Below are positions 26,239-47,196 of a stretch of DNA of 64,000 nt, in pieces (the stretch's first letter is position 1; every line of letters begins with the position of its first letter). Below the pieces are notes generated by a model. It had not been told where the DNA came from, did not search any database, and was given only the letters and a program-made list of their open reading frames with translations. The stretch comes from Planctomycetota bacterium (lineage in GTDB: Bacteria > Planctomycetota > UBA8742 > UBA2392). The stretch lies in the NCBI GenBank assembly GCA_020849795.1, contig JADZFR010000007.1, positions 16,184 to 80,183 of the forward strand, given 5' to 3'. Both the position numbers and the translations under genes were made by a program.

Positions 26239-26670
26239 CTATCGCTTCGCGCCCACGAACTGGATGCGCACTTCGCCTACCTTCGCCCCCTTCATGGGTT
26301 TGCCGGTGGCGGGGTCGATCGGCTTGAGCTGCTTGAGCAGCTCCGGGTCTACCTGCACATCATAGATGCGGCCGCTTTCGGTGCAGACAAAGTGCTGGTG
26401 AGGCTCCAGCGTCGCGTCAAAACGGCGCAGCCCGTCACTGCTGGTCAGCGACGTGATCACGCCGGCTTCGGCCAGCTTGTCGAGGTTCTGGTAAACGGTC
26501 GCGCGGCCAATGTGGTGCCCGGCCGCTTCAAGCCGCACAGCCAGCTCGTCGGCAGAAGGATGGTCGCGCACTTCTTCCAGCGACGCAAGAATGGCAACGC
26601 GTGCCGTGGTCGGCCGCAAGCCGGCCCTCGCGATTTTGTCAGCTACGATTGTGTGGGGCCTGTGCGCCAT
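26239..26670 (-). CDS. Fur family transcriptional regulator
   Basis: Winged-helix N-domain (TTARVAILASL) plus His-rich metal-site residues (HH, HQH). Start at the internal ATG; only one Cys. Confidence 0.8.
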   Translation of the reverse strand: MAHRPHTIVADKIARAGLRPTTARVAILASLEEVRDHPSADELAVRLEAAGHHIGRATVYQNLDKLAEAGVITSLTSSDGLRRFDATLEPHQHFVCTESGRIYDVQVDPELLKQLKPIDPATGKPMKGAKVGEVRIQFVGAKR

Positions 26671-26862
26671 CGTCGTTCGAACCGTTAACGCCCTGCAATC
26701 TACTTGTATGCCGGAGGACCCGCCATATGTGGAAATGGCCAGCCTGATCGGCGCCACCAAAACCGGCGCTACAATTGCCCTCTGTCGCGCTGATTCCTAA
26801 CGTATCAGGGCTGGGTCGCCTTGGCGGATGGCTTTGTCCGCCGTTGGATACTGGAGAAGATT

Positions 26863-27882
26863 ATGAGACTGCTGCTGTTACCTGCCCTGTTGCTGGCCTG
26901 CGTGCCGCTTGCCGCTCAGGAAGTGAAAGTCGGCGATGACGTTGCCGAGTTCAGCCCGCGCAACTGGATCAACCCGCCCGCGTTCGCCTCGTTTGAAGAG
27001 CTGCGCGGCGACGTCATCATGATCAAGGCCTGGGGCAAGAACTGAGGCCCCTGCATCCGGCAGTTGCCGGCAATGAACGAGTACCACGAAAAAGCGGGCC
27101 TGCACGTCGTGACCCTCTATGCGCAGACACACAAGCTTGAAGAAATCGAAGAGCTGGTCAACAAGCACGAAATCAAATACCCCATCGCCATGGACGCCTT
27201 CTGGGACGCCGGCTACCACGCGCCGGGCTTACCCAAGATGTGGATCATCGGCGCCGACGGCAAAGTCAAGTTTGCCGGCATGAGCGGCTATTCCAAAGTG
27301 CTTGAAGAAGAGCTGGCCAAGGTGAAGTATCCCGGGCTGGCCAAGGACAAAGTCCACTCAGCCCTTGAACCCGCCGCCAAGCTGTTTGTCGAGGGCAAGT
27401 ACGCCGAAGCCCACAAAGCCGCCGAGGCCCTGTACGATGAAACCGATGACGAAACAGTCGAAGAAGACGCCTCGTACATCATGAAGCGCATTGAGGCGCG
27501 TATGAGTGCATTGGCGGTCCGTGCTGAGACTGCCGAGGCGATGAAGGACTACGCGCTGGCCATGAAGTGCTGGGAACAACTTGCAGCCTACAAGGGGCTC
27601 GACGATGCCGAAGAAGCGCCCGCGCGCCTGAAGAAGCTGCAAGGCAGCGAAGATGTGAAGAAAGAGCTTGCCGCCAAACGCGCTCTGCTGGCCGAGATGC
27701 TGCTGCTTGACCTCGGATATGCCGAGATCGACGCCAGTGACGCGGACCAGCTGAAGAAGTTCCGCGAGAAGTGCCTCGAGACCTACAAGAAGTTCGCCGC
27801 AGACAACAAGGGCACCGGCGCCGCCGAGCGGGCCAACGAACTGATCGGCATTTTCAAAGAGCTGCTCGGCATCAAGGACTGA
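26863..27882 (+). CDS. Candidate selenoprotein: secreted TlpA/thioredoxin-like thiol:disulfide oxidoreductase (UGPC motif) with C-terminal acidic helical domain; in-frame TGA at 27043-27045
   Basis: ORFs 26821..27045 and 27064..27882 share one frame, separated only by the TGA. Translation through the TGA reads VIMIKAWGKN-U-GPCIRQLPAMNEYHEK, matching the TlpA active site (VVLVNFWASWCGPC...). The paralog has TGT at this position. GGAG Shine-Dalgarno sits 7 nt before ATG 26863. Alternative reading: nonsense pseudogene. Confidence 0.55.
27057..27070 (+). promoter_or_regulatory. Candidate bacterial SECIS hairpin
   Basis: CCGGC-AGUU-GCCGG hairpin starting 11 nt downstream of the in-frame UGA, with a G/U-containing apical loop. 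Geometry resembles E. coli fdhF SECIS. Confidence 0.4.
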
Positions 27883-27976: not shown

Positions 27977-29035
27977 ATGACACGACTGCTGCTGATTGCG
28001 TTGCTATGCGCGCCGTTGTGCGCGCAGGTCAAAGTCGGCGATGACGCACCGGACTTTTCGCCGCGCAACTGGATCAACCCGCCGACCTTCAACTCCTTCG
28101 ACGAGCTTGCCGGCGACGTCATTCTCCTGAAAGCCTGGGGCATCAACTGTACCGGCAGCATGAGCCAACTGGACGCTACCAACAAGCTCGCGGAAACCCC
28201 GGGCCTGCATGTCGTCACGTTCTACGCCCAGACCCACAAGCTTGAGCAGATTGAAGCCGTCGTGAAATCCAACAACATCAAGTACCCGATCGCCCTGGAC
28301 GAGACGCCATGGCTGGCCGGATACGATGCACCCGACCTGCCCAAGGTCTGGATCATCGGCACCGACGGCATCGTCAAGTTCGCGGGCACCGACACCTACG
28401 ACGAAGCACTCAAGGCTGAACTTGCGAAGGTCAAGTACCCGGGCCTGGGCAAGCACAGTATCGCAAAAGGCCTTGAGCCTGCCGCCAAACTGTTCGTCGC
28501 CGGCAAGTTCAAAGAAGCCTACGACCTCGCCGAGAAGATGTTTGACGAGACTGACGACGAAGCCGAAGAAAACGACGCCGACTGGATCATGAAGCGCATC
28601 GACGGGCGCATGAACACGCTCAGCGTGCGCGCCGCCACCTCGGAAGTGCTGAAGGAGTACACGCTGGCCATGCGCTGCTGGGAAGAGCTTGCGCGATACA
28701 AGGGGCTGGACGACGCCGAAGAGGCGCCCGGGAGACTGAAGAAGCTGCAGGAAAGCGCTGACGTCAAGAAGGAGGTTGCGGCGCGCCGTAGCCTGCTGAT
28801 GCTGATGTGCGACCTGGACGTTGAGTTTCAGGTTTTGGACGACAGTGAACCCGCGACCGTAAAGGCCTTCCGCGAGAAGTGTCTCAAGGCCTACCAGGAG
28901 TTCGCCTCAGCCAACAAAGGCACAGGCGCCGCCGACCGCGCCGATGAGCTGGTCAAGGCGTTCAAGCAGTTGTTGGGAATCCCCGACGAGCCCGCAAAGG
29001 ACCCTGTCAAACAAGAGCCGCCCAAAAAAGACTGA
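27977..29035 (+). CDS. TlpA/thioredoxin-like secreted protein, Cys paralog (CTGS motif), with C-terminal acidic helical domain
   Basis: ~55-60% identical to the upstream gene over the full length. Signal peptide present. WGINCTGS where the upstream gene has WGKN-U-GPC. GGAG 7 nt before the ATG. Confidence 0.75.
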   Translation: MTRLLLIALLCAPLCAQVKVGDDAPDFSPRNWINPPTFNSFDELAGDVILLKAWGINCTGSMSQLDATNKLAETPGLHVVTFYAQTHKLEQIEAVVKSNNIKYPIALDETPWLAGYDAPDLPKVWIIGTDGIVKFAGTDTYDEALKAELAKVKYPGLGKHSIAKGLEPAAKLFVAGKFKEAYDLAEKMFDETDDEAEENDADWIMKRIDGRMNTLSVRAATSEVLKEYTLAMRCWEELARYKGLDDAEEAPGRLKKLQESADVKKEVAARRSLLMLMCDLDVEFQVLDDSEPATVKAFREKCLKAYQEFASANKGTGAADRADELVKAFKQLLGIPDEPAKDPVKQEPPKKD

Positions 29036-29210
29036 CTCTCTCAAGTGTTGTGGGTTGCTGCCTTTACGGGAAAGCCAGCGCCGCAAGTCTGTTTTCTTTG
29101 TCGCCGGAACCTTCGCGCGTCCTGTGGGGTCCATGTAGTCTAACTGCTGTTTGATCCACTCAAAGAAACCGCGAAGGCGGGTTCCGATTGTGACTACCCA
29201 GGAGAACGGA

Positions 29211-30584
29211 ATGCTCTGGACACGTTTACTGTTTGCCGGCGTTGCCGCTGTCAGCATCGGCAGCCTTGACACGCTGGCCCAAGAAACTCCCGCGCCTGCC
29301 ACCGAGAAGAAGACCGAGGCTGCACCCGCCAACATCGACGTGAACAAGCCGGCTGTCGGAAAGTTCACGGTCGTCAAGAAGACCGATCTCAAACTGACCG
29401 ATGAAGCCCGCAAGCGCGACGTTGTGCTGGCGGCGTGCTTTCCGAAAGAAGAGGGCAGCTACCCGGTCATCCTGTACAGCGTAGGCCAGGGCGCCGTCGC
29501 CAACGACTCGCTGGCGACGCCCGAGTTTCTGGCCAGCCACGGCTACGTTGTGTTTGTGCCGACCCACCCGCAGCCCGCACGCGGCGGCGCTGCAGCACCG
29601 AACCCCGACCAGATGTTTGAGCAGTACGACACCAACAAAGACGGCAAACTTTCGAAAGAAGAGCTGCCCGAGCAACTGCGGGACTTCTTTGACACCGTGG
29701 ACACCGACAGCGACGGCTTTATCAGCAAAGACGAGCTGCGCGCAGCAATCGGCGGCGCAGCCCCCGCGCCGGCGCCCGAGCAGCCGAAGAAAGACGAGCC
29801 CAAGAAGGATGACAAAGAAAAAGAAGACGAATTCGACCGCGCGCCGGACTCGCCCGAGATGCACCTGACCGAAGACCCGGCGCAGCCCGCGCCCGAGCAG
29901 CCTCGCGGTCGCCAGGGCCGACAGGGCCGCGGCCAGCGCGGCAACGACCCCACCAGCATCATCGACCGCAGCAAAGACCTGCTGCTGGTGACCGACCAGA
30001 TGACCAAGCTTGTGGAAGCGACGCCGGAGCTCAAGGGCAAAGCCAACCTGGAACAGATTGCCGTCGTCGGCCACGGGGCCGGTGCAGCCACGGCAGTCAT
30101 CCTGGGCGGCGCCACCATTGACGTCGGCGAGGAAAAGGGCAAGTCGTTCGCAGACAAGCGCATCAAGGCCGTCGTGCAGTTCGGCCCGGCGCAGAGCGGC
30201 CGCAATGGCTTCAGCGCGGATTCGTGGAAGGGCCTGACCACGCCCATGCTTGCCGTCAGCGGCGCCACACAGATGAACTTCGGCCGCGGCACCCCGGACC
30301 CTGAGGCGCGCAAAGAGTCATTCAAAGGCGCACCCGAAGGCAACAAGTACTTCGTAAGCATTGAGGGCGCATCCGACTTCGACCTGCCGGGCGCACCGGC
30401 CATGCGCATGGGCCGCGGCGGCCAGGCACCAGCCAAGAACGAAGCCGCCGGCAACTGGACGAACAGCGTGACCCTTCAGTTCTTGAACAGCACGCTCAAA
30501 GCCGACGAATCCGCCAAGACCTGGCTCGCCGGCGACGCGCTGGACAAGGGCTCCGAGGGCAAGGCCAAGATCGAACGCAAGTAA
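29211..30584 (+). CDS. Secreted alpha/beta-hydrolase-fold protein (PAF-acetylhydrolase/chlorophyllase-like) with inserted EF-hand pair; nucleophile elbow degenerate (GHGAG)
   Basis: Signal peptide. Two canonical EF-hand loops, DTNKDGKLSKEE and DTDSDGFISKDE. Hydrolase-like segments flank them, but G-H-G-A-G replaces G-x-S-x-G. Confidence 0.65.
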   Translation: MLWTRLLFAGVAAVSIGSLDTLAQETPAPATEKKTEAAPANIDVNKPAVGKFTVVKKTDLKLTDEARKRDVVLAACFPKEEGSYPVILYSVGQGAVANDSLATPEFLASHGYVVFVPTHPQPARGGAAAPNPDQMFEQYDTNKDGKLSKEELPEQLRDFFDTVDTDSDGFISKDELRAAIGGAAPAPAPEQPKKDEPKKDDKEKEDEFDRAPDSPEMHLTEDPAQPAPEQPRGRQGRQGRGQRGNDPTSIIDRSKDLLLVTDQMTKLVEATPELKGKANLEQIAVVGHGAGAATAVILGGATIDVGEEKGKSFADKRIKAVVQFGPAQSGRNGFSADSWKGLTTPMLAVSGATQMNFGRGTPDPEARKESFKGAPEGNKYFVSIEGASDFDLPGAPAMRMGRGGQAPAKNEAAGNWTNSVTLQFLNSTLKADESAKTWLAGDALDKGSEGKAKIERK

Positions 30585-30718: not shown

Positions 30719-32215
30719 CTACTCGAGATTCTCGTACATGGCGCCCAGCATGTCGCAGTACAGGATCCCGCGGTCTTTGTCCTCTTTGGCCAGCAGGCTG
30801 CTCTGGTGCAGGCCCTCAAGCACGAACTCCATCGCCGCTGCGAGCTCGGGCCCCTTGACATCCTTCATGTATTGACGCGTCAATGCCTCAAGCTCGGGCA
30901 CGGCCTGCAGTGCTTTCGCGTACTCTTTGTCGGGCATCTCGTCCGTCAGTTCCAGCCGCTTGCCCTTGGCAAACCAGTCGATCACCGGCTTGTACGGGCC
31001 GTCATCGCGCTGGGGCACCGCCTCGCGGCCCTGCTTCCGGCCCGTGCGCTGGCGCGTGGCGTACACGCCGGGGAACGCGGCCTCAAACACCCCGCGCAGC
31101 GCCGCACCGATAATGCCGGTCGCAACCTTGTGCGCGCCTTCCTGTTCGCCTTCGTAGACCAGTTCCAGCTTGCCCGACATGGCCGGGATCGCCGCCGACA
31201 GGTCCACCACCCGCAGCCACGTGCTATCTTGACCGGTCAACAGGCAGCGCCGTTCGGCGTTGCTTAGCACACTTTCCAGCGCGGCAATGTTCATGCGCGC
31301 GCTGACACCGCTGGCCTGGTCGACAAACTCTGATTTGCGCGCGGCAAACCCGATCTGCTCAATGGCTTCGCGAAGAAACGCAGGCACGTGCACCTTGGGC
31401 GCCTTCGGGCGCTCGGTCCAGGCCTCTTGATCCGTGATCGCGCGGCTGTCTTCCACCGAGTTGGGATAGTGCGTGATCACCTGCGACTCGATGCGGTCTT
31501 TCAGCGGAGTGATAATGCTGCCGCGGTTGGTGTAGTCCTCCGGGTTGGCCGAAAAGCACAGCATCAGGTCCAGCGGAATGCGCACCGGAAAGCCGCGAAT
31601 CTGGATGTCGGCTTCTTCAAGAATGTTCAACAGGCCCACCTGGATGCGCGGCTGCAGGTCCGGCAATTCATTGATGGCAAAGATGCCGCGGTTGGTGCGC
31701 GGGATGATGCCGAAGTGGATGACCTCTTCGTCGGCAAACGTGAGCTTTTGCGTGGCGGCCTTGATCGGGTCTACGTCGCCAATCAGGTCGGCGATGCTCA
31801 CGTCCGGCGTGGCAAGTTTCTCGGCATAGCGCGACTCTCGGTGCAGCCAGTCGATTTCGACCTCGTCGCCGTGGCGGGCCACCAGCGTTCGCGCGTACTT
31901 GGAAAGCGGCTTGTATGGGTCATCGTTGAGTTCACTGCCCTTGATCACGGGCATGTACTCGTCCAGCAGGTTGACCAGGCTGCGCAAGATGCGCGTCTTT
32001 GCCTGCCCGCGCAGCCCCAGCAGGATCAGGTTGTGGCGCGCAAGCACCGCATTGATCACCTGCGGAATGACGGTCTGGTCATAGCCGACGATGCCGGGGA
32101 ACAGCTTGCTCTTGTCGCCCAGTCGGGCCACCAGATTTTCGCGCAGTTCGTCTTTGACGCCGCGCGACTTCCAGCCCGAAGCCTTGAGCGCGCCTATCGT
32201 GGTTGGTCGTGCCAT
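30719..32215 (-). CDS. AAA+ ATPase, magnesium-chelatase ChlI/BchI-like family
   Basis: N-terminal region aligns to ChlI (GYDQTV...LLGLRGQAKT...ELNDDPY). Walker B-like FAINELPD. ~500 aa. Confidence 0.65.
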   Translation of the reverse strand: MARPTTIGALKASGWKSRGVKDELRENLVARLGDKSKLFPGIVGYDQTVIPQVINAVLARHNLILLGLRGQAKTRILRSLVNLLDEYMPVIKGSELNDDPYKPLSKYARTLVARHGDEVEIDWLHRESRYAEKLATPDVSIADLIGDVDPIKAATQKLTFADEEVIHFGIIPRTNRGIFAINELPDLQPRIQVGLLNILEEADIQIRGFPVRIPLDLMLCFSANPEDYTNRGSIITPLKDRIESQVITHYPNSVEDSRAITDQEAWTERPKAPKVHVPAFLREAIEQIGFAARKSEFVDQASGVSARMNIAALESVLSNAERRCLLTGQDSTWLRVVDLSAAIPAMSGKLELVYEGEQEGAHKVATGIIGAALRGVFEAAFPGVYATRQRTGRKQGREAVPQRDDGPYKPVIDWFAKGKRLELTDEMPDKEYAKALQAVPELEALTRQYMKDVKGPELAAAMEFVLEGLHQSSLLAKEDKDRGILYCDMLGAMYENLE

Positions 32216-32263
32216 GGCGCGGATGCTACCAGCCAGCACCCGCATTGGGAAACCCGCGGACGG

Positions 32264-33220
32264 CTAGGCCTTGAACTTCAGCAGCCATTCAAGGTCGGCC
32301 TCGTCCACGCTTTCCCATTCGCCGCTGACCAGACGCCAGTTGTGCCCGTGCCGCACCAGCAGCTTGTGAACCGTGATCTCGCGACGGTCGATGTGCGCCT
32401 TGTTGAGCTTTGCGATCAGCCACGCCACAGCGGCACCCAACGCAGCCGCCGAGACGACGACGCCCCAGAACGGCGCCCCCAGCTCGCGCAGGCGCTCGGA
32501 CCCGACAATGAAAGGCACAGCCACAACCAGCACACCCGCCGCCAGCGCCCCATAGAATGCAAGCTTGCGCCGCACCGCAATGCGCAACGTCACGCGAGCA
32601 AGCGCCACATCGGCCATCGGGCTTTCCGCTTGCAGGTCGCGCACGCTTACAAGGTGTGTGACTGCCGGGTTGCCGCGCAACAGCGCGCGCCAATACCTTG
32701 CCAGCGTCTTGGCAGAGTCCAGTTTGGGCACGGCGGCTGCGGTCAACCAGTTGAACACCGGGCGCACCGGCGGGCCGGGATGATCGAACCCACGCACCAG
32801 CGCCCCAAGCCGCCGGCTGCGCGGCCGGCGCTGCGTTGCCGCAAGATAGAACTCGTGAATCGTCTTTTCGGGGCTATCTGGTGCACTGGCGGCCCAGCGC
32901 GTCATCACTCGCGATACGCCGATGTAGAAAGCCACTGCGGCGGCCACGCCTACCAGCGCCCAGGCGCCCGGGTCGATCCAGGCGCGCCAGTCGTTGAAGT
33001 CCCCCGGCCAGACAGGCTGGAACACGGCCAGCAAAGCCGCCGCGCCGAACGGAACCAGCAGCAGCGGGACGGTACCAAAGAGGATGCGGCTGTCGCGGCC
33101 GACGCGCTTTACGGACAGGTCGGGTGCCATCGCCGCATGCAGTCGCGCCTTGGCCTCGCGGTGCGGGTCAACGGCTGGCTTGCGAGGTGAGCGCTGCGGC
33201 GGATTCAGGATGAGCGTCAT
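32264..33220 (-). CDS. Hypothetical membrane protein
   Basis: Several TM helices, no recognised motifs. Start uncertain. Confidence 0.5.
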   Translation of the reverse strand: MTLILNPPQRSPRKPAVDPHREAKARLHAAMAPDLSVKRVGRDSRILFGTVPLLLVPFGAAALLAVFQPVWPGDFNDWRAWIDPGAWALVGVAAAVAFYIGVSRVMTRWAASAPDSPEKTIHEFYLAATQRRPRSRRLGALVRGFDHPGPPVRPVFNWLTAAAVPKLDSAKTLARYWRALLRGNPAVTHLVSVRDLQAESPMADVALARVTLRIAVRRKLAFYGALAAGVLVVAVPFIVGSERLRELGAPFWGVVVSAAALGAAVAWLIAKLNKAHIDRREITVHKLLVRHGHNWRLVSGEWESVDEADLEWLLKFKA

Positions 33221-44522: not shown

Positions 44523-44650
44523 GCAACCAGGTTAGTAACCGAGGGCTCTACACGCAGCGACGATCGCTCCGCTTACGCCATTCGCTGTTCGCCTTCGGGC
44601 GAACAACGAACGGCTGCTACGCGTTCCAAACAGCGCGCTGCGCTGTTTGG

Positions 44651-44678
44651 AGGTTCGAGTCCTTCCGCCCCTGCCAGC
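44651..44678 (+). repeat. 28-bp direct repeat of the tRNA-Asn 3' end (T-arm + acceptor 3' strand + CCA); first copy at 44497..44524
   Basis: Exact 28-nt identity AGGTTCGAGTCCTTCCGCCCCTGCCAGC, 127 bp after the intact tRNA. Confidence 0.75.
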
Positions 44679-44787
44679 CGTGCCGGCGCCACAGGCCAGG
44701 CGGCTGTTGTGCAGCAACCAACATCGTGCTCTTTTCGCACTTGCTCGATCTCCGGCCCTCATATACTGCGAAGGGCTTCGGACCTTC

Positions 44788-46260
44788 ATGCTCAAGCAGA
44801 TCTTCGCGGATAACGCCACGCTGACCTGGACCCTGATCGCCATCGACTGGCTGATCCGGGTCGCGCTTGGCATCCGCATCATCATGCGCCGCAGCTCGAC
44901 CGGCTTCACGCTCGCGTGGCTGACTGCGGTGCTGTTGTTGCCGGTGCTGGGCGCGATCATCTACCTGCTGCTGGGCGAGCGCAGACTGGGAACTCGCCGT
45001 GCCAAGCGCATCGAAGAGCTGCGCAAACCCTATCGCGCGTGGCTGGAAAACTTGGCGAAAGACTTTCCGGTCGAAGCAGCCGCGCTGGGCTCGGGCGCTG
45101 ACATGATCCGGCGCCAGGCGCGGGGCACGGTGGGTGTGCCGACTTTGCCCGGCAACACGCTGCAACTGATTGACGATGCGGAAGCGTTCTTTGACCACCT
45201 GATTGCCGATATTGAAACCGCAACCTCCAGCGTTCACCTTGAGTTCTACATCTGGCTTCCCGGCGGCCGCGCCGATGACGTTGCCAACGCACTGACCCGC
45301 GCCGCCGCGCGGGGCGTGAAGTGCCGCATCCTGGTGGACGACGTCGGCGGCGCAGACCTGGTCGGCTCGGACACGCAAGCCATGCTTGAGAAAGCCGGAG
45401 TGCGCGTAGTTTCGATGCTCAAGGTAGGCCTGCTGCGCTCCATGTTCGCCCGCGTCGACTTGCGCAACCACCGTAAAATTGCCGTGATTGACGGCGTCAT
45501 CGGCTACACCGGCAGCCAGAACATTGCAGACCCCAAGCTGTTCAAGGCGCAGGAAGGCATCGGCGAGTGGCTCGATGCCATGGTGCGCATGACCGGCCCG
45601 GCTGTCGAGGCGTTGCAGGTGACACTGCTTGCGGACTGGGAGTTCGAGACCTTCGAGGGCATCGAAAAGAACGTGGCTGATTTCGATGTCAAGCGCAGCG
45701 CCCCTGTCGGCGATGCCCTGGTGCAGGTCGTGCCCTCGGGTCCCGGCCTCAGCCAGCTTGCAATCCAGGAGTTGATCCTGACCGTCATCTACGCAGCCCA
45801 CACCGAACTGGTGCTGACGACGCCCTACTTCATACCCGATGACGCGATGATCAAGGCGCTGTTGTCCGCAGCCGCCCGCGGTGTAGATGTGCAGCTGATG
45901 TTGCCGCGCTACCCCGACAGCCGCGTCGTCAAGTGGGCCGGCGAGAGCTACTTTGAAGAACTGCTTGAGGGCGGCGTCTGCATTTGCCGCTATGAGGGCG
46001 GAATGCTGCACACCAAAGCGATTGTGATCGATGGGCAGATCGCAATGTTCGGCTCGGTCAACCTGGACATGCGCAGCTTCTACCTGAATTTCGAGATCTC
46101 GATCGTCGTCTACAACGGTCTGTTCGCGCAAAAGGTGCGCAGTCTGCAGGAACACTATCGGCAAAGTTCGCAGAAACTTGACCTTGAGCGCTGGCGCTCA
46201 CGACCGGTAATGCTGCGTTTTGCACAACAAACCGCACAGTTGCTGAGCCCGCTGCTTTGA
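44788..46260 (+). CDS. cls: Cardiolipin synthase
   Basis: Two N-terminal TM helices and two HKD motifs (NHRKIAVIDG; LHTKAIVIDGQ...GSVNLD). Confidence 0.85.
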   Translation: MLKQIFADNATLTWTLIAIDWLIRVALGIRIIMRRSSTGFTLAWLTAVLLLPVLGAIIYLLLGERRLGTRRAKRIEELRKPYRAWLENLAKDFPVEAAALGSGADMIRRQARGTVGVPTLPGNTLQLIDDAEAFFDHLIADIETATSSVHLEFYIWLPGGRADDVANALTRAAARGVKCRILVDDVGGADLVGSDTQAMLEKAGVRVVSMLKVGLLRSMFARVDLRNHRKIAVIDGVIGYTGSQNIADPKLFKAQEGIGEWLDAMVRMTGPAVEALQVTLLADWEFETFEGIEKNVADFDVKRSAPVGDALVQVVPSGPGLSQLAIQELILTVIYAAHTELVLTTPYFIPDDAMIKALLSAAARGVDVQLMLPRYPDSRVVKWAGESYFEELLEGGVCICRYEGGMLHTKAIVIDGQIAMFGSVNLDMRSFYLNFEISIVVYNGLFAQKVRSLQEHYRQSSQKLDLERWRSRPVMLRFAQQTAQLLSPLL

Positions 46261-46347
46261 GGCCCGCAATTCACCCGGGATATTTTTCGATGCACCGCGC
46301 ATTGCAGAGTCGTATGGTGCAAAATCTTGTCTTATCCGGAGACTGCT

Positions 46348-47196
46348 ATGAGCGGATCAGGCGCATCGCCGGTCAATACCCGCCCCTACGGCAACACATT
46401 CCAGGGCGCGGCTGGCCCTGCCGGCAGCTTTGAAGAAGCCGCCCTGCACCGGGCCGCCACCAAACTCGCGAAAATCAGCAGCAACCAGTCGGGGGACGCG
46501 CCCGTGGGTTTCAACTGGGGCACCGGTGTCGCTGCGATCCTGCTGGCCGCAATCCCGGGTGGCTTGTTCGCGCTGCTGGCGTGGGCCGCGTTCACCGACA
46601 AGAGTGCAGGCGCCACGCCGGGCATGATCCTGACGCTGATTGCGCTGTTGTTCGTCGGTTTGCCCTTCCTGATTATCCGCACTTCCAAGCCGGATTCGCC
46701 GAAGAAGGCATTGAAAGAGTTCTATCGCGCCGTGGGGCGCGGCAATGCCAAGCGCGCGATGGCGCTGGTTACCAATGCCGACAAGGACAGCCTGCAGCGC
46801 CGCCAGCCGGTCATCCCCAAGCTCGGGCGCCCGTCCGGCTATACCCGCTCGCTGAATGACGCGGACGGCTTCAAAGGCTACTGGAACGAGCTTGTCCGCA
46901 CCCACCCGGCGCCATACTGCCTGACGCGAGTCAGCGGGCTTCAAGTTCAGGAAGTCAAACCGGGCGTGGTCATCGCCGACTTCGAACTGACACTGACCAT
47001 GAACACGCAACTGTGGTGGATCCTGATCCTGGTCGCGCTGCTGCTCGCTGCGCTGCTGGACATACTCACGCGCAAGGTCGTGAAGGTGCGCATGCGCAAA
47101 GTGCTGGTGCAGGTCGGCGAGGAATGGAAGCTCTTCAACGGCGAGTGGCAAGGCTACGAAGAAATGGACCTGCGCTGGCTCGATGCCCGAGCCTAA
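46348..47196 (+). CDS. Hypothetical membrane protein
   Basis: Two central TM helices and a C-terminal TM. GGAG before the ATG. Confidence 0.5.
   Translation: MSGSGASPVNTRPYGNTFQGAAGPAGSFEEAALHRAATKLAKISSNQSGDAPVGFNWGTGVAAILLAAIPGGLFALLAWAAFTDKSAGATPGMILTLIALLFVGLPFLIIRTSKPDSPKKALKEFYRAVGRGNAKRAMALVTNADKDSLQRRQPVIPKLGRPSGYTRSLNDADGFKGYWNELVRTHPAPYCLTRVSGLQVQEVKPGVVIADFELTLTMNTQLWWILILVALLLAALLDILTRKVVKVRMRKVLVQVGEEWKLFNGEWQGYEEMDLRWLDARA

Follow-up and report, generated by a model that had tools for sequence, protein, structure and literature searches.

A probable selenocysteine-containing thioredoxin-fold protein read through an in-frame UGA codon in an uncultured planctomycete

Bacterial selenoproteins of the peroxiredoxin (Prx)-like, Redoxin and TlpA-like kinds that carry a UxxC motif, in which U stands for selenocysteine (Sec), were reportedly recognized by Kryukov and Gladyshev and by Zhang and Gladyshev. 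Descriptions of thioredoxin-fold selenoproteins with UxxC date back to 2004-2005, and a 2026 review lists them in a table; the catalogued kinds comprise a Prx-like thiol:disulfide oxidoreductase (PF00578), Redoxin (PF08534) and thiol-disulfide isomerase-like/TlpA-like proteins (cd02966), in addition to a UGC-containing TlpA family and a VPGUxxT family (PMC1088965, PMC13188914). Here we describe a gene in a 64,000-nucleotide stretch of contig JADZFR010000007.1 (assembly GCA_020849795.1, Planctomycetota bacterium), which is referred to below as the window, in which the UGA codon at 27043-27045 most probably encodes Sec (a probability of about 0.9, in our estimate) within what would be an exported redox enzyme of the thioredoxin fold. 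Like the Prx-like, Redoxin and TlpA-like UxxC selenoproteins, the predicted product has the AhpC-TSA/Redoxin fold, places Sec first in UxxC and has homologs with Cys at that position. An initial annotation of the window had proposed this U-G-P-C reading, and it is supported by the conservation of the TGA codon, the pairing of Sec and Cys forms, a covarying hairpin and purifying selection.

The open reading frames (ORFs) at 26821..27045 and 27064..27882 of the forward strand lie in a common frame with the TGA at 27043-27045 as the sole interruption between them, just as had been annotated. Reading through this codon from the ATG at 26863 would give a product of 339 residues (...IMIKAWGKN-*-GPCIRQLPAMNEYH...), in which the sequence flanking the stop is ...GDVIMIKAWGKN-[TGA]-GPCIRQLPAMNEYH... 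GenBank annotates only 27073..27882, as a "hypothetical protein" of 269 amino acids (IT464_03100, identical to homolog P0001), and a separate 60-amino-acid ORF is called upstream of it, all of the sampled gene callers having split the gene. A reassigned genetic code was excluded because TGA is an ordinary stop in the window, where 21 of the 54 long ORFs picked for a high GC content at third codon positions terminate with it. When the window was scanned for other in-frame TGA codons with coding-like flanks, only the one at 27043 was found to be credible. The TGA at 46258-46260 (+), between 44647..46260 and 46327..47196, was also considered and was judged to be an ordinary stop, with no redox motif or hairpin; the two genes that it separates, both on the forward strand, lie in a common frame and are set apart by this TGA and 66 nt.

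Comparative criteria for bacterial selenoprotein genes, taken from PMC1088965, ask that an in-frame TGA be shared by two or more different sequences, that two or more homologs have Cys at the TGA, and that coding conservation extend over its flanks. A codon survey was made by tblastn on DNA from metagenomes and from one genome per species, and the codon aligned to residue 61 was TGA in 41 distinct DNA sequences and TAA or TAG in none. These 41 sequences belong to 22 species-representative Planctomycetota metagenome-assembled genomes (MAGs) and to metagenome contigs, and their protein identity to the window protein ranges from 28 to 94%, the 94% relative being located on the 4.12-Mb contig JADJRK010000001.1. 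The gene of the window itself recurs in identical form in the Logan runs SRR18162975 and SRR18162977. Homologs of the same two-domain architecture were found with Cys at the Sec codon, namely P0007 with the motif CVPC, L012 and L075 with CGPC, and L015 and L016 with CPPC, and more distant TlpA-like proteins (WATWCGPC) also align a Cys there. The alternation of TGA with TGC/TGT at precisely the residue-61 codon, which the initial annotation had suggested looking for, was therefore seen across homologs. The tblastn alignments cross the stop uninterrupted, from residue ~1 to ~335, and orthologs display neither the frameshifts nor the other decay that the same annotation had named as a sign against its proposal. 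In the 41 codons 5' of the TGA, differences at the first, second and third codon positions numbered 82/72/164, an excess at the third position, and close orthologs differ there mainly by synonymous changes (10 synonymous vs 2 replacement in L044). Purifying selection acts on the coding sequence both before and after the TGA.

These data bear directly on an alternative in which one of two duplicated redoxin genes was inactivated by a one-step change from TGC or TGT to TGA, with the paralog left to function. This alternative is in keeping with the presence of a tandem paralog, with the single step that separates TGA from TGT and TGC, and with the fact that gene callers and GenBank take the TGA as a stop. 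However, the same TGA recurs in 22 species, even where identity is as low as 28%, with neither a frameshift nor a second stop, and purifying selection is evident 5' of it. The paralog at 27977..29035 does carry TGT at the Sec codon, as had been reported, and we add that its motif is CTGS rather than CxxC; since the resolving (second) Cys is absent, it is not a functional replacement. The one-step nonsense pseudogene is contradicted by the conservation of the TGA in 22 species, and we regard it as having a negligible probability.

The protein databases reflect the same codon in another way. A protein search returned 41 close homologs (E <= 1e-83) together with P0042 and P0043, which are distant proteins with a thioredoxin domain. 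In 23 of the 41 close homologs the N-terminus is missing; most of these 23 begin with MNEYH..., MNKYH... or MRQLP..., right after the motif, and three are shorter fragments, a pattern expected of gene callers that stop at a conserved TGA. It could be argued that such callers are correct and that the TGA is a genuine stop, giving a 60-residue secreted peptide and a separate protein of 269-272 residues, or the downstream protein alone, as in-frame starts chosen by annotation pipelines exist just past the motif (TTG at 27064 and ATG at 27073). Nevertheless, with a genuine stop the thioredoxin fold would be severed at the active site, and the main product would lack the U/CxxC motif along with the signal peptide and the first beta-strands, whereas the Cys homologs are single polypeptides. 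The downstream "starts" also vary among orthologs, with MNEYH in some and MRQLP in others, and termination would leave unexplained why TGA is used over TAA and TAG in all 41 sequences and why a covarying hairpin follows it. Such a genuine stop is thus very improbable, and the assignment of Sec to the codon is preferred.

With respect to this hairpin, its elements are located where the initial annotation had placed them: the stem CCGGC (27057-27061) begins after 11 nt (27046-27056) from the TGA and is followed by the loop AGUU (27062-27065) and the stem GCCGG (27066-27070). RNAfold lengthens the stem by pairing 27054-27056 with 27073-27075 below a 2-nt bulge. In the minimal E. coli fdhF element, too, the stem begins 11 nt after the UGA. 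Bacterial Sec insertion sequence (SECIS) elements have 16-37 nt between the UGA and the apical loop (PMC10778597) and a G that stands first or second in the apical loop (PMC13582414, PMC1088965). In the window, the distance from the UGA to the loop is 16 nt (27046-27061), at the lower bound of that range, and the G is second in the small loop A-G-U-U, so that the spacing and loop composition that had been claimed to be those of a bacterial SECIS agree with the published rules (PMC10778597, PMC13582414).

The covariation of the hairpin was evaluated in a gap-free alignment of 41 segments (A2), in which the helix occupies columns 23-28/33-38. Standard pairs were formed in 91.9% of the helix cells vs 72.1% in shuffles, and cells with double changes numbered 36 vs 9.8 in shuffles, neither value being reached in any of 500 shuffles. 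The double changes were present at four of the six helix pairs. Pair 25-36 was CG in 25 segments, AU in 11 and GC in 5, and was never broken, and pair 26-35 was GC in 26, CG in 11 and AU in 1. As a control, the 3' partner was slid by 1-3 columns, and pairing fell to 26-71%; RNAalifold arrived independently at the same five pairs. In the loop, conservation reached at least 90% both at column 30 (G) and at column 31 (U), and it was complete at column 32 (U). The compensatory changes looked for as a mark of SECIS structure are, therefore, present, and the check for covariation in orthologs that the initial annotation had called for turned out in favor of the hairpin, which is conserved and does not occur in the Cys and degenerate forms.

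The difference between Sec and non-Sec members of the family was also evident in folding energy, as the mean minimum free energy over the same 30 nt was -10.6 kcal/mol in Sec forms vs -5.7 kcal/mol in non-Sec family members. The core GCAGUUGC is absent from the non-Sec members, including the Cys forms and the window's own paralog. Moreover, because the SECIS stem sits in coding sequence, the amino acids at +5 and +8 after Sec covary (R-Q-L-P, A-Q-L-R, T-Q-L-R, Q-Q-L-L and G-Q-L-P), and the loop codons for Q-L stay fixed while the +5/+8 residues vary (window positions 27055-27069 and the homologous columns of A2). When all DNA analyzed was scanned for ORFs holding a TGA, then 9-14 nt and then a 5-bp stem whose loop contains GUU, 54 matches were obtained. 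Of these, 45 fell in the redoxin family and 9 resembled noise, and no second selenoprotein family was detected. The conserved TGA and the covarying hairpin in relatives are far beyond chance. Taken together, the evidence amounts to the comparative signature that is standard for bacterial selenoproteins whose SECIS lies within the ORF, and the hairpin is a putative SECIS that would be bound by SelB and drive selenium-dependent recoding.

Several observations weigh against the Sec reading. The stem is short, with 5-6 bp plus 3 bp below the bulge, and the minimum free energy of the window hairpin was -9.8 kcal/mol vs a mean of -11.15 for dinucleotide shuffles (z = +0.52), so that its single-sequence stability did not rise above a background that is GC-rich. 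The AGUU hairpin was not seen in two distant TGA forms, L074 and L076, which may have a different hairpin. No match to a SECIS or tRNA-Sec was obtained from Rfam, either in the window at the gathering threshold or in 26950-27200 at E <= 10; as regards the SECIS, this absence says little, because Rfam is not known to us to hold a general model of bacterial SECIS elements. As for the decoding machinery, selA, selB, selD and tRNA-Sec were not found in the 64-kb window by ARAGORN, Rfam and tblastn with E. coli SelA, SelB and SelD, the tRNA genes of the window amounting to one (Asn). In 1.28 Mb of related loci, ARAGORN and tblastn likewise gave no Sec machinery except a selB fragment in L016. In addition, none of the six MAGs traced through selB (JADJNY, JACKHS, JAEUIA, CAYXZD, JAJDEW and JAJDEU) has the redoxin family.

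The L016 fragment (1933-2199) is the N-terminus of a selB gene at a contig end, with 62% identity to E. coli SelB across 89 residues, and lies ~600 nt downstream of a Cys-form family member, with one ORF of 166 amino acids between them. When the 89-amino-acid fragment was used as a query, the best 120 matches listed were all short proteins of 93-156 amino acids. A full-length Planctomycetota SelB, obtained from L106 by changing its TAG to Glu, served as another query and matched many Planctomycetota selB genes, indicating that selB of full length is frequent in MAGs of uncultured Planctomycetota. The in-frame TAG of the L106 gene (3295-3297) replaces the Glu of the conserved QTREHL motif, so that the gene is called as ORFs of 98 and 533 amino acids; a sequencing error, recoding or decay into a pseudogene could each account for it. 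In uncultured Planctomycetota (L109-L114), selB belongs to a conserved block with the order dnaG, rpoD, a gene for a Zn_ribbon_9 protein, a radical SAM gene on the opposite strand, selB, a gene for a protein of ~500 amino acids without assignment, a HEAT/VWA protein gene, tRNA-Pro(CGG) and rho. Complete Sec gene sets are present in some cultured Planctomycetes (PMC4807772); this, the selB next to the Cys form in L016 and the frequency of selB in MAGs count in favor of the Sec reading.

The machinery is relevant to a further alternative, in which the UGA is read through with another amino acid, that is, Cys or Trp by a near-cognate or suppressor tRNA, or Cys carried on tRNA-Sec when selenium is scarce, and in which the hairpin acts as a general stimulator. 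Downstream structures can stimulate the read-through of stop codons, and no Sec machinery was found in the 64-kb window, both of which speak for this alternative. On the other hand, selB is widespread in related MAGs, and if Cys were to be inserted, TGC or TGT would be simpler and is what relatives use. Residue 61 is the redox nucleophile, at which the exchange of Sec and Cys is a known pattern (PMC1088965), and the position of the hairpin and its loop G fit the rules for SECIS elements (PMC10778597, PMC13582414). Because the site is a redox nucleophile with Sec/Cys exchange and the hairpin obeys these rules, insertion of another amino acid is disfavored, and we allow it only a slim chance.

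To describe the protein that Sec insertion would yield, Pfam was run with Cys substituted for Sec, and residues ~37-137 matched AhpC-TSA (PF00578; 35.2 bits, cut-off 26) and Redoxin (PF08534; 26.7 bits, cut-off 26.6). The structure of the natural Cys homolog P0007, which is 61% identical to the window protein, was modeled with AlphaFold2 (mean predicted local distance difference test score 88.6; predicted template modeling score 0.82), and in the model a thioredoxin fold precedes an all-helical domain with eight helices. In this model, Cys82, the first Cys of CVPC, lies between the strand 72-78 and the helix 83-96, which places the corresponding Sec residue of the window protein at the canonical CxxC nucleophile position, at the N-terminus of helix alpha-1. 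The claim that the stop sits at the nucleophilic first Cys of a thioredoxin active site is thereby borne out by the model as well as by the alignment to the TlpA-like WATWCGPC. Pro124 is invariant and could serve as the cis-proline, a candidate role suggested by the family. The best solved structures in a Foldseek search were ResA, DipZ and Etrx2 (E ~1e-7), which are extracytoplasmic thiol-disulfide oxidoreductases. The PDB matches listed span only stretches of the size of the N-terminal domain, at most 170 residues, and no evident solved counterpart of the helical C-terminal domain was found among them.

The scores against curated families stayed far below their cut-offs: 47.3 bits vs 170 for NCBIfam ResA (NF002854), 17.1 vs 230 for TlpA (NF047696), 26.1 vs 300 for the N-terminal domain with NF041054 (ResA-like WAxxUGC), whose motif differs, and 32 vs 350 for NF041382 (VPGUxxT), with which only the C-terminal domain matches (residues 163-328 to profile positions 190-347/349; E = 7.9e-8, and 1.6e-10 for the paralog). 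The window protein is predicted to work like ResA/TlpA without being an ortholog. Its motif is U-G-P-C with no PxxxT, at variance with the peroxiredoxin pattern PxxxTxxU/C, and since the motif is of the CxxC type, and not the peroxiredoxin PxxxTxxC, the most likely activity would be periplasmic thiol/selenol-disulfide exchange. The signal peptide, to which the N-termini of homologs align as equivalent, carries no twin-arginine motif and would imply export, and the helical C-terminal domain would probably bind a partner or substrate.

From these features, a working mechanism may be outlined. The gene would be translated into one exported two-domain protein, with a ResA/TlpA-like thioredoxin fold followed by the all-helical domain, the UGA at 27043 being recoded during translation with the hairpin 11 nt downstream acting as the SECIS. 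The hairpin would recruit SelB-GTP-Sec-tRNA(Sec) to the ribosome, and Sec would be inserted in place of termination. After export, the enzyme could act as a thiol/selenol-disulfide oxidoreductase in which Sec61 attacks a disulfide of the substrate (or an oxidized substrate) and Cys64 resolves the selenenylsulfide. In this scheme, we infer the SelB dependence, the export, the redox chemistry and the substrate alike.

The features of the locus are collected in Table 1. The Fur-family regulator gene gave NCBIfam PerR/Irr matches below the cut-offs and adjoins the Sec gene only in the closest relatives, as judged by synteny, which leaves a link between the two genes in doubt. The genes for the hydrolase, the AAA+ protein and the 318-amino-acid protein adjoin the Sec gene in many relatives, distant ones included, which may reflect either functional linkage or simply the gene order of the clade. 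No cytochrome-maturation or copper-chaperone gene context was present around the Sec gene. The GC-rich hairpin past the stop codon could possibly be a terminator between the Sec gene and its paralog, and a scan for consensus terminators did not call it.

Table 1. Positions of the putative selenoprotein gene, its elements and its neighbors in the window.
Feature	Position	Strand	Basis or remark
Fur-family (PerR/Irr-like) regulator, divergent upstream	26239..26760	-	Pfam FUR 78.9 bits
Shine-Dalgarno-like GGAG, 6 nt 5' of the ATG	26853..26856	+	direct sequence reading
Full predicted selenoprotein coding sequence, 339 residues + stop, single in-frame UGA	26863..27882	+	
Predicted N-terminal hydrophobic signal peptide (MRLLLLPALLLACVPLAAQ)	26863..26919	+	inferred from sequence
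Thioredoxin-fold domain (AhpC-TSA/Redoxin, ResA/TlpA/DsbE-like)	26920..27342	+	
UGA read as putative Sec, residue 61, N-terminal nucleophile of U-G-P-C (27043-27054)	27043..27045	+	
SECIS-like hairpin, apical stem + 3 lower bp below 2-nt bulge	27054..27075	+	sequence reading, RNAfold
Invariant Pro124 (G-L-P-K-M-W), candidate cis-proline	27232..27234	+	invariant column, alignment A1
All-helical C-terminal domain, ~residues 163-339	27349..27879	+	NCBIfam NF041382 match, model
9-bp GC-rich hairpin (AACCCGGCG / CGCCGGGTT), weak T tract, 18 nt past the stop codon	27900..27922	+	sequence reading
Tandem paralog, motif C-T-G-S, no SECIS hairpin	27977..29035	+	63% identical over whole length
EF-hand + alpha/beta-hydrolase gene (PAF-acetylhydrolase/chlorophyllase-like)	29151..30584	+	
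AAA+ gene (MoxR/ChlI-like), 508 amino acids, convergent	30719..32245	-	
Gene of 318 amino acids, no Pfam match	32264..33220	-	

Further members of the family were encountered in the related loci. A second Sec subfamily, KKWGC[TDG]-U-PPC-L[AT]QLRR, has an additional Cys two residues before Sec and a SECIS stem of GGCGC/GCGCC or GACGC/GCGTC; it occurs at L007, L061-L064, L067 and L069-L072 (~10,145 in each 20-kb locus), and it coexists with a window-type gene in the same MAGs, such as JACKIE, JAOSKM and JACKID. A U-G-P-S form (L013 8596-9546; L073 9956-10906) has no resolving Cys and keeps the AGUU hairpin with the stem GGGGC/GCCCC. In L060 (8866-13117; MAG contig JADLAK010000095.1), four copies of the family are packed in ~4.3 kb, three with TGA and one with Ser, and two of the TGA copies are on the opposite strand; these two paralogs keep the GUU-loop hairpin in a slightly shifted register. 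Non-Sec paralogs with degenerate sites (window 27977-29035; L042, L043, L044, L049, L052, L054 and L056), NVPS among them, are often in tandem with the Sec gene.

Within the close family, a complete redox motif was found only in Sec forms and in the rare Cys form P0007, the only one of the 41 close database homologs with a complete CxxC, and the other full-length paralogs read CTGS, CKDS, DKDS, NAEC, NAES or SDAA. Because almost all of the non-Sec paralogs of the close family are without a redox motif, Sec, not Cys, would be the default catalytic residue. The helical domain is also that of the VPGUxxT family, a hint that both families may possess the same partner-binding module. There are also genomes with at least two Sec paralogs, one 4.3-kb cluster with three, and three types of Sec active site, namely U-G-P-C, C-x-U-P-P-C and U-G-P-S. 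It may tentatively be proposed, with the balance of our judgment still on the side of doubt, that these exported selenoproteins with two domains constitute a family that is uncatalogued, restricted to the clade and expanded in uncultured Planctomycetota, with a shared partner-binding module and Sec as the default.

The practical value of this study lies in annotation, as the same split-gene error is present in at least 22 MAG species. It adds a well-supported selenoprotein family, with 41 sequences and a clean Sec/Cys pair, to a poorly known group of Planctomycetota, and it offers a clear natural case in which a SECIS inside an ORF constrains the protein sequence (R..P, A..R, T..R, Q..L and G..P at +5/+8). 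The knowledge of Sec decoding and of thioredoxin-fold chemistry is unchanged, and the protein would be a fairly ordinary kind of bacterial selenoprotein.

In comparison with known systems, the window gene has the defining features of the UxxC thioredoxin-fold selenoproteins and falls below the cut-offs of every specific curated family tested. It resembles the Prx-like, Redoxin and TlpA-like UxxC selenoproteins further in having a putative SECIS inside the ORF just past the UGA and in being misannotated as truncated, whereas it differs from them in its all-helical C-terminal domain of ~180 residues and its signal peptide; the published representatives (e.g., WP_010940744.1 and HEU0032618.1) were compared with the window family by description only. 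The clade-restricted two-domain family, which we found only in one group of uncultured Planctomycetota, appears to be uncatalogued. ResA, TlpA, CcmG (DsbE), the C-terminal domain of DipZ and Etrx are extracytoplasmic CxxC oxidoreductases that use Cys, in contrast to the Sec predicted for the window protein, which also has the additional helical C-terminal domain. The curated families NF041382 and NF041054 are similar in being selenoprotein families of ~350 residues with a thioredoxin-like domain; however, the motif in the window is WGKN-U-GPC, neither VPGUxxT nor WAxxUGC. Finally, the hairpin is like the SECIS of the E. coli fdhF type in that it lies inside the ORF and has a small apical loop with adjacent G and U, but its stem is shorter (5-6 bp + 3 bp), it has no obvious bulged U, and the loop AGUU is nearly invariant in the clade of the window.

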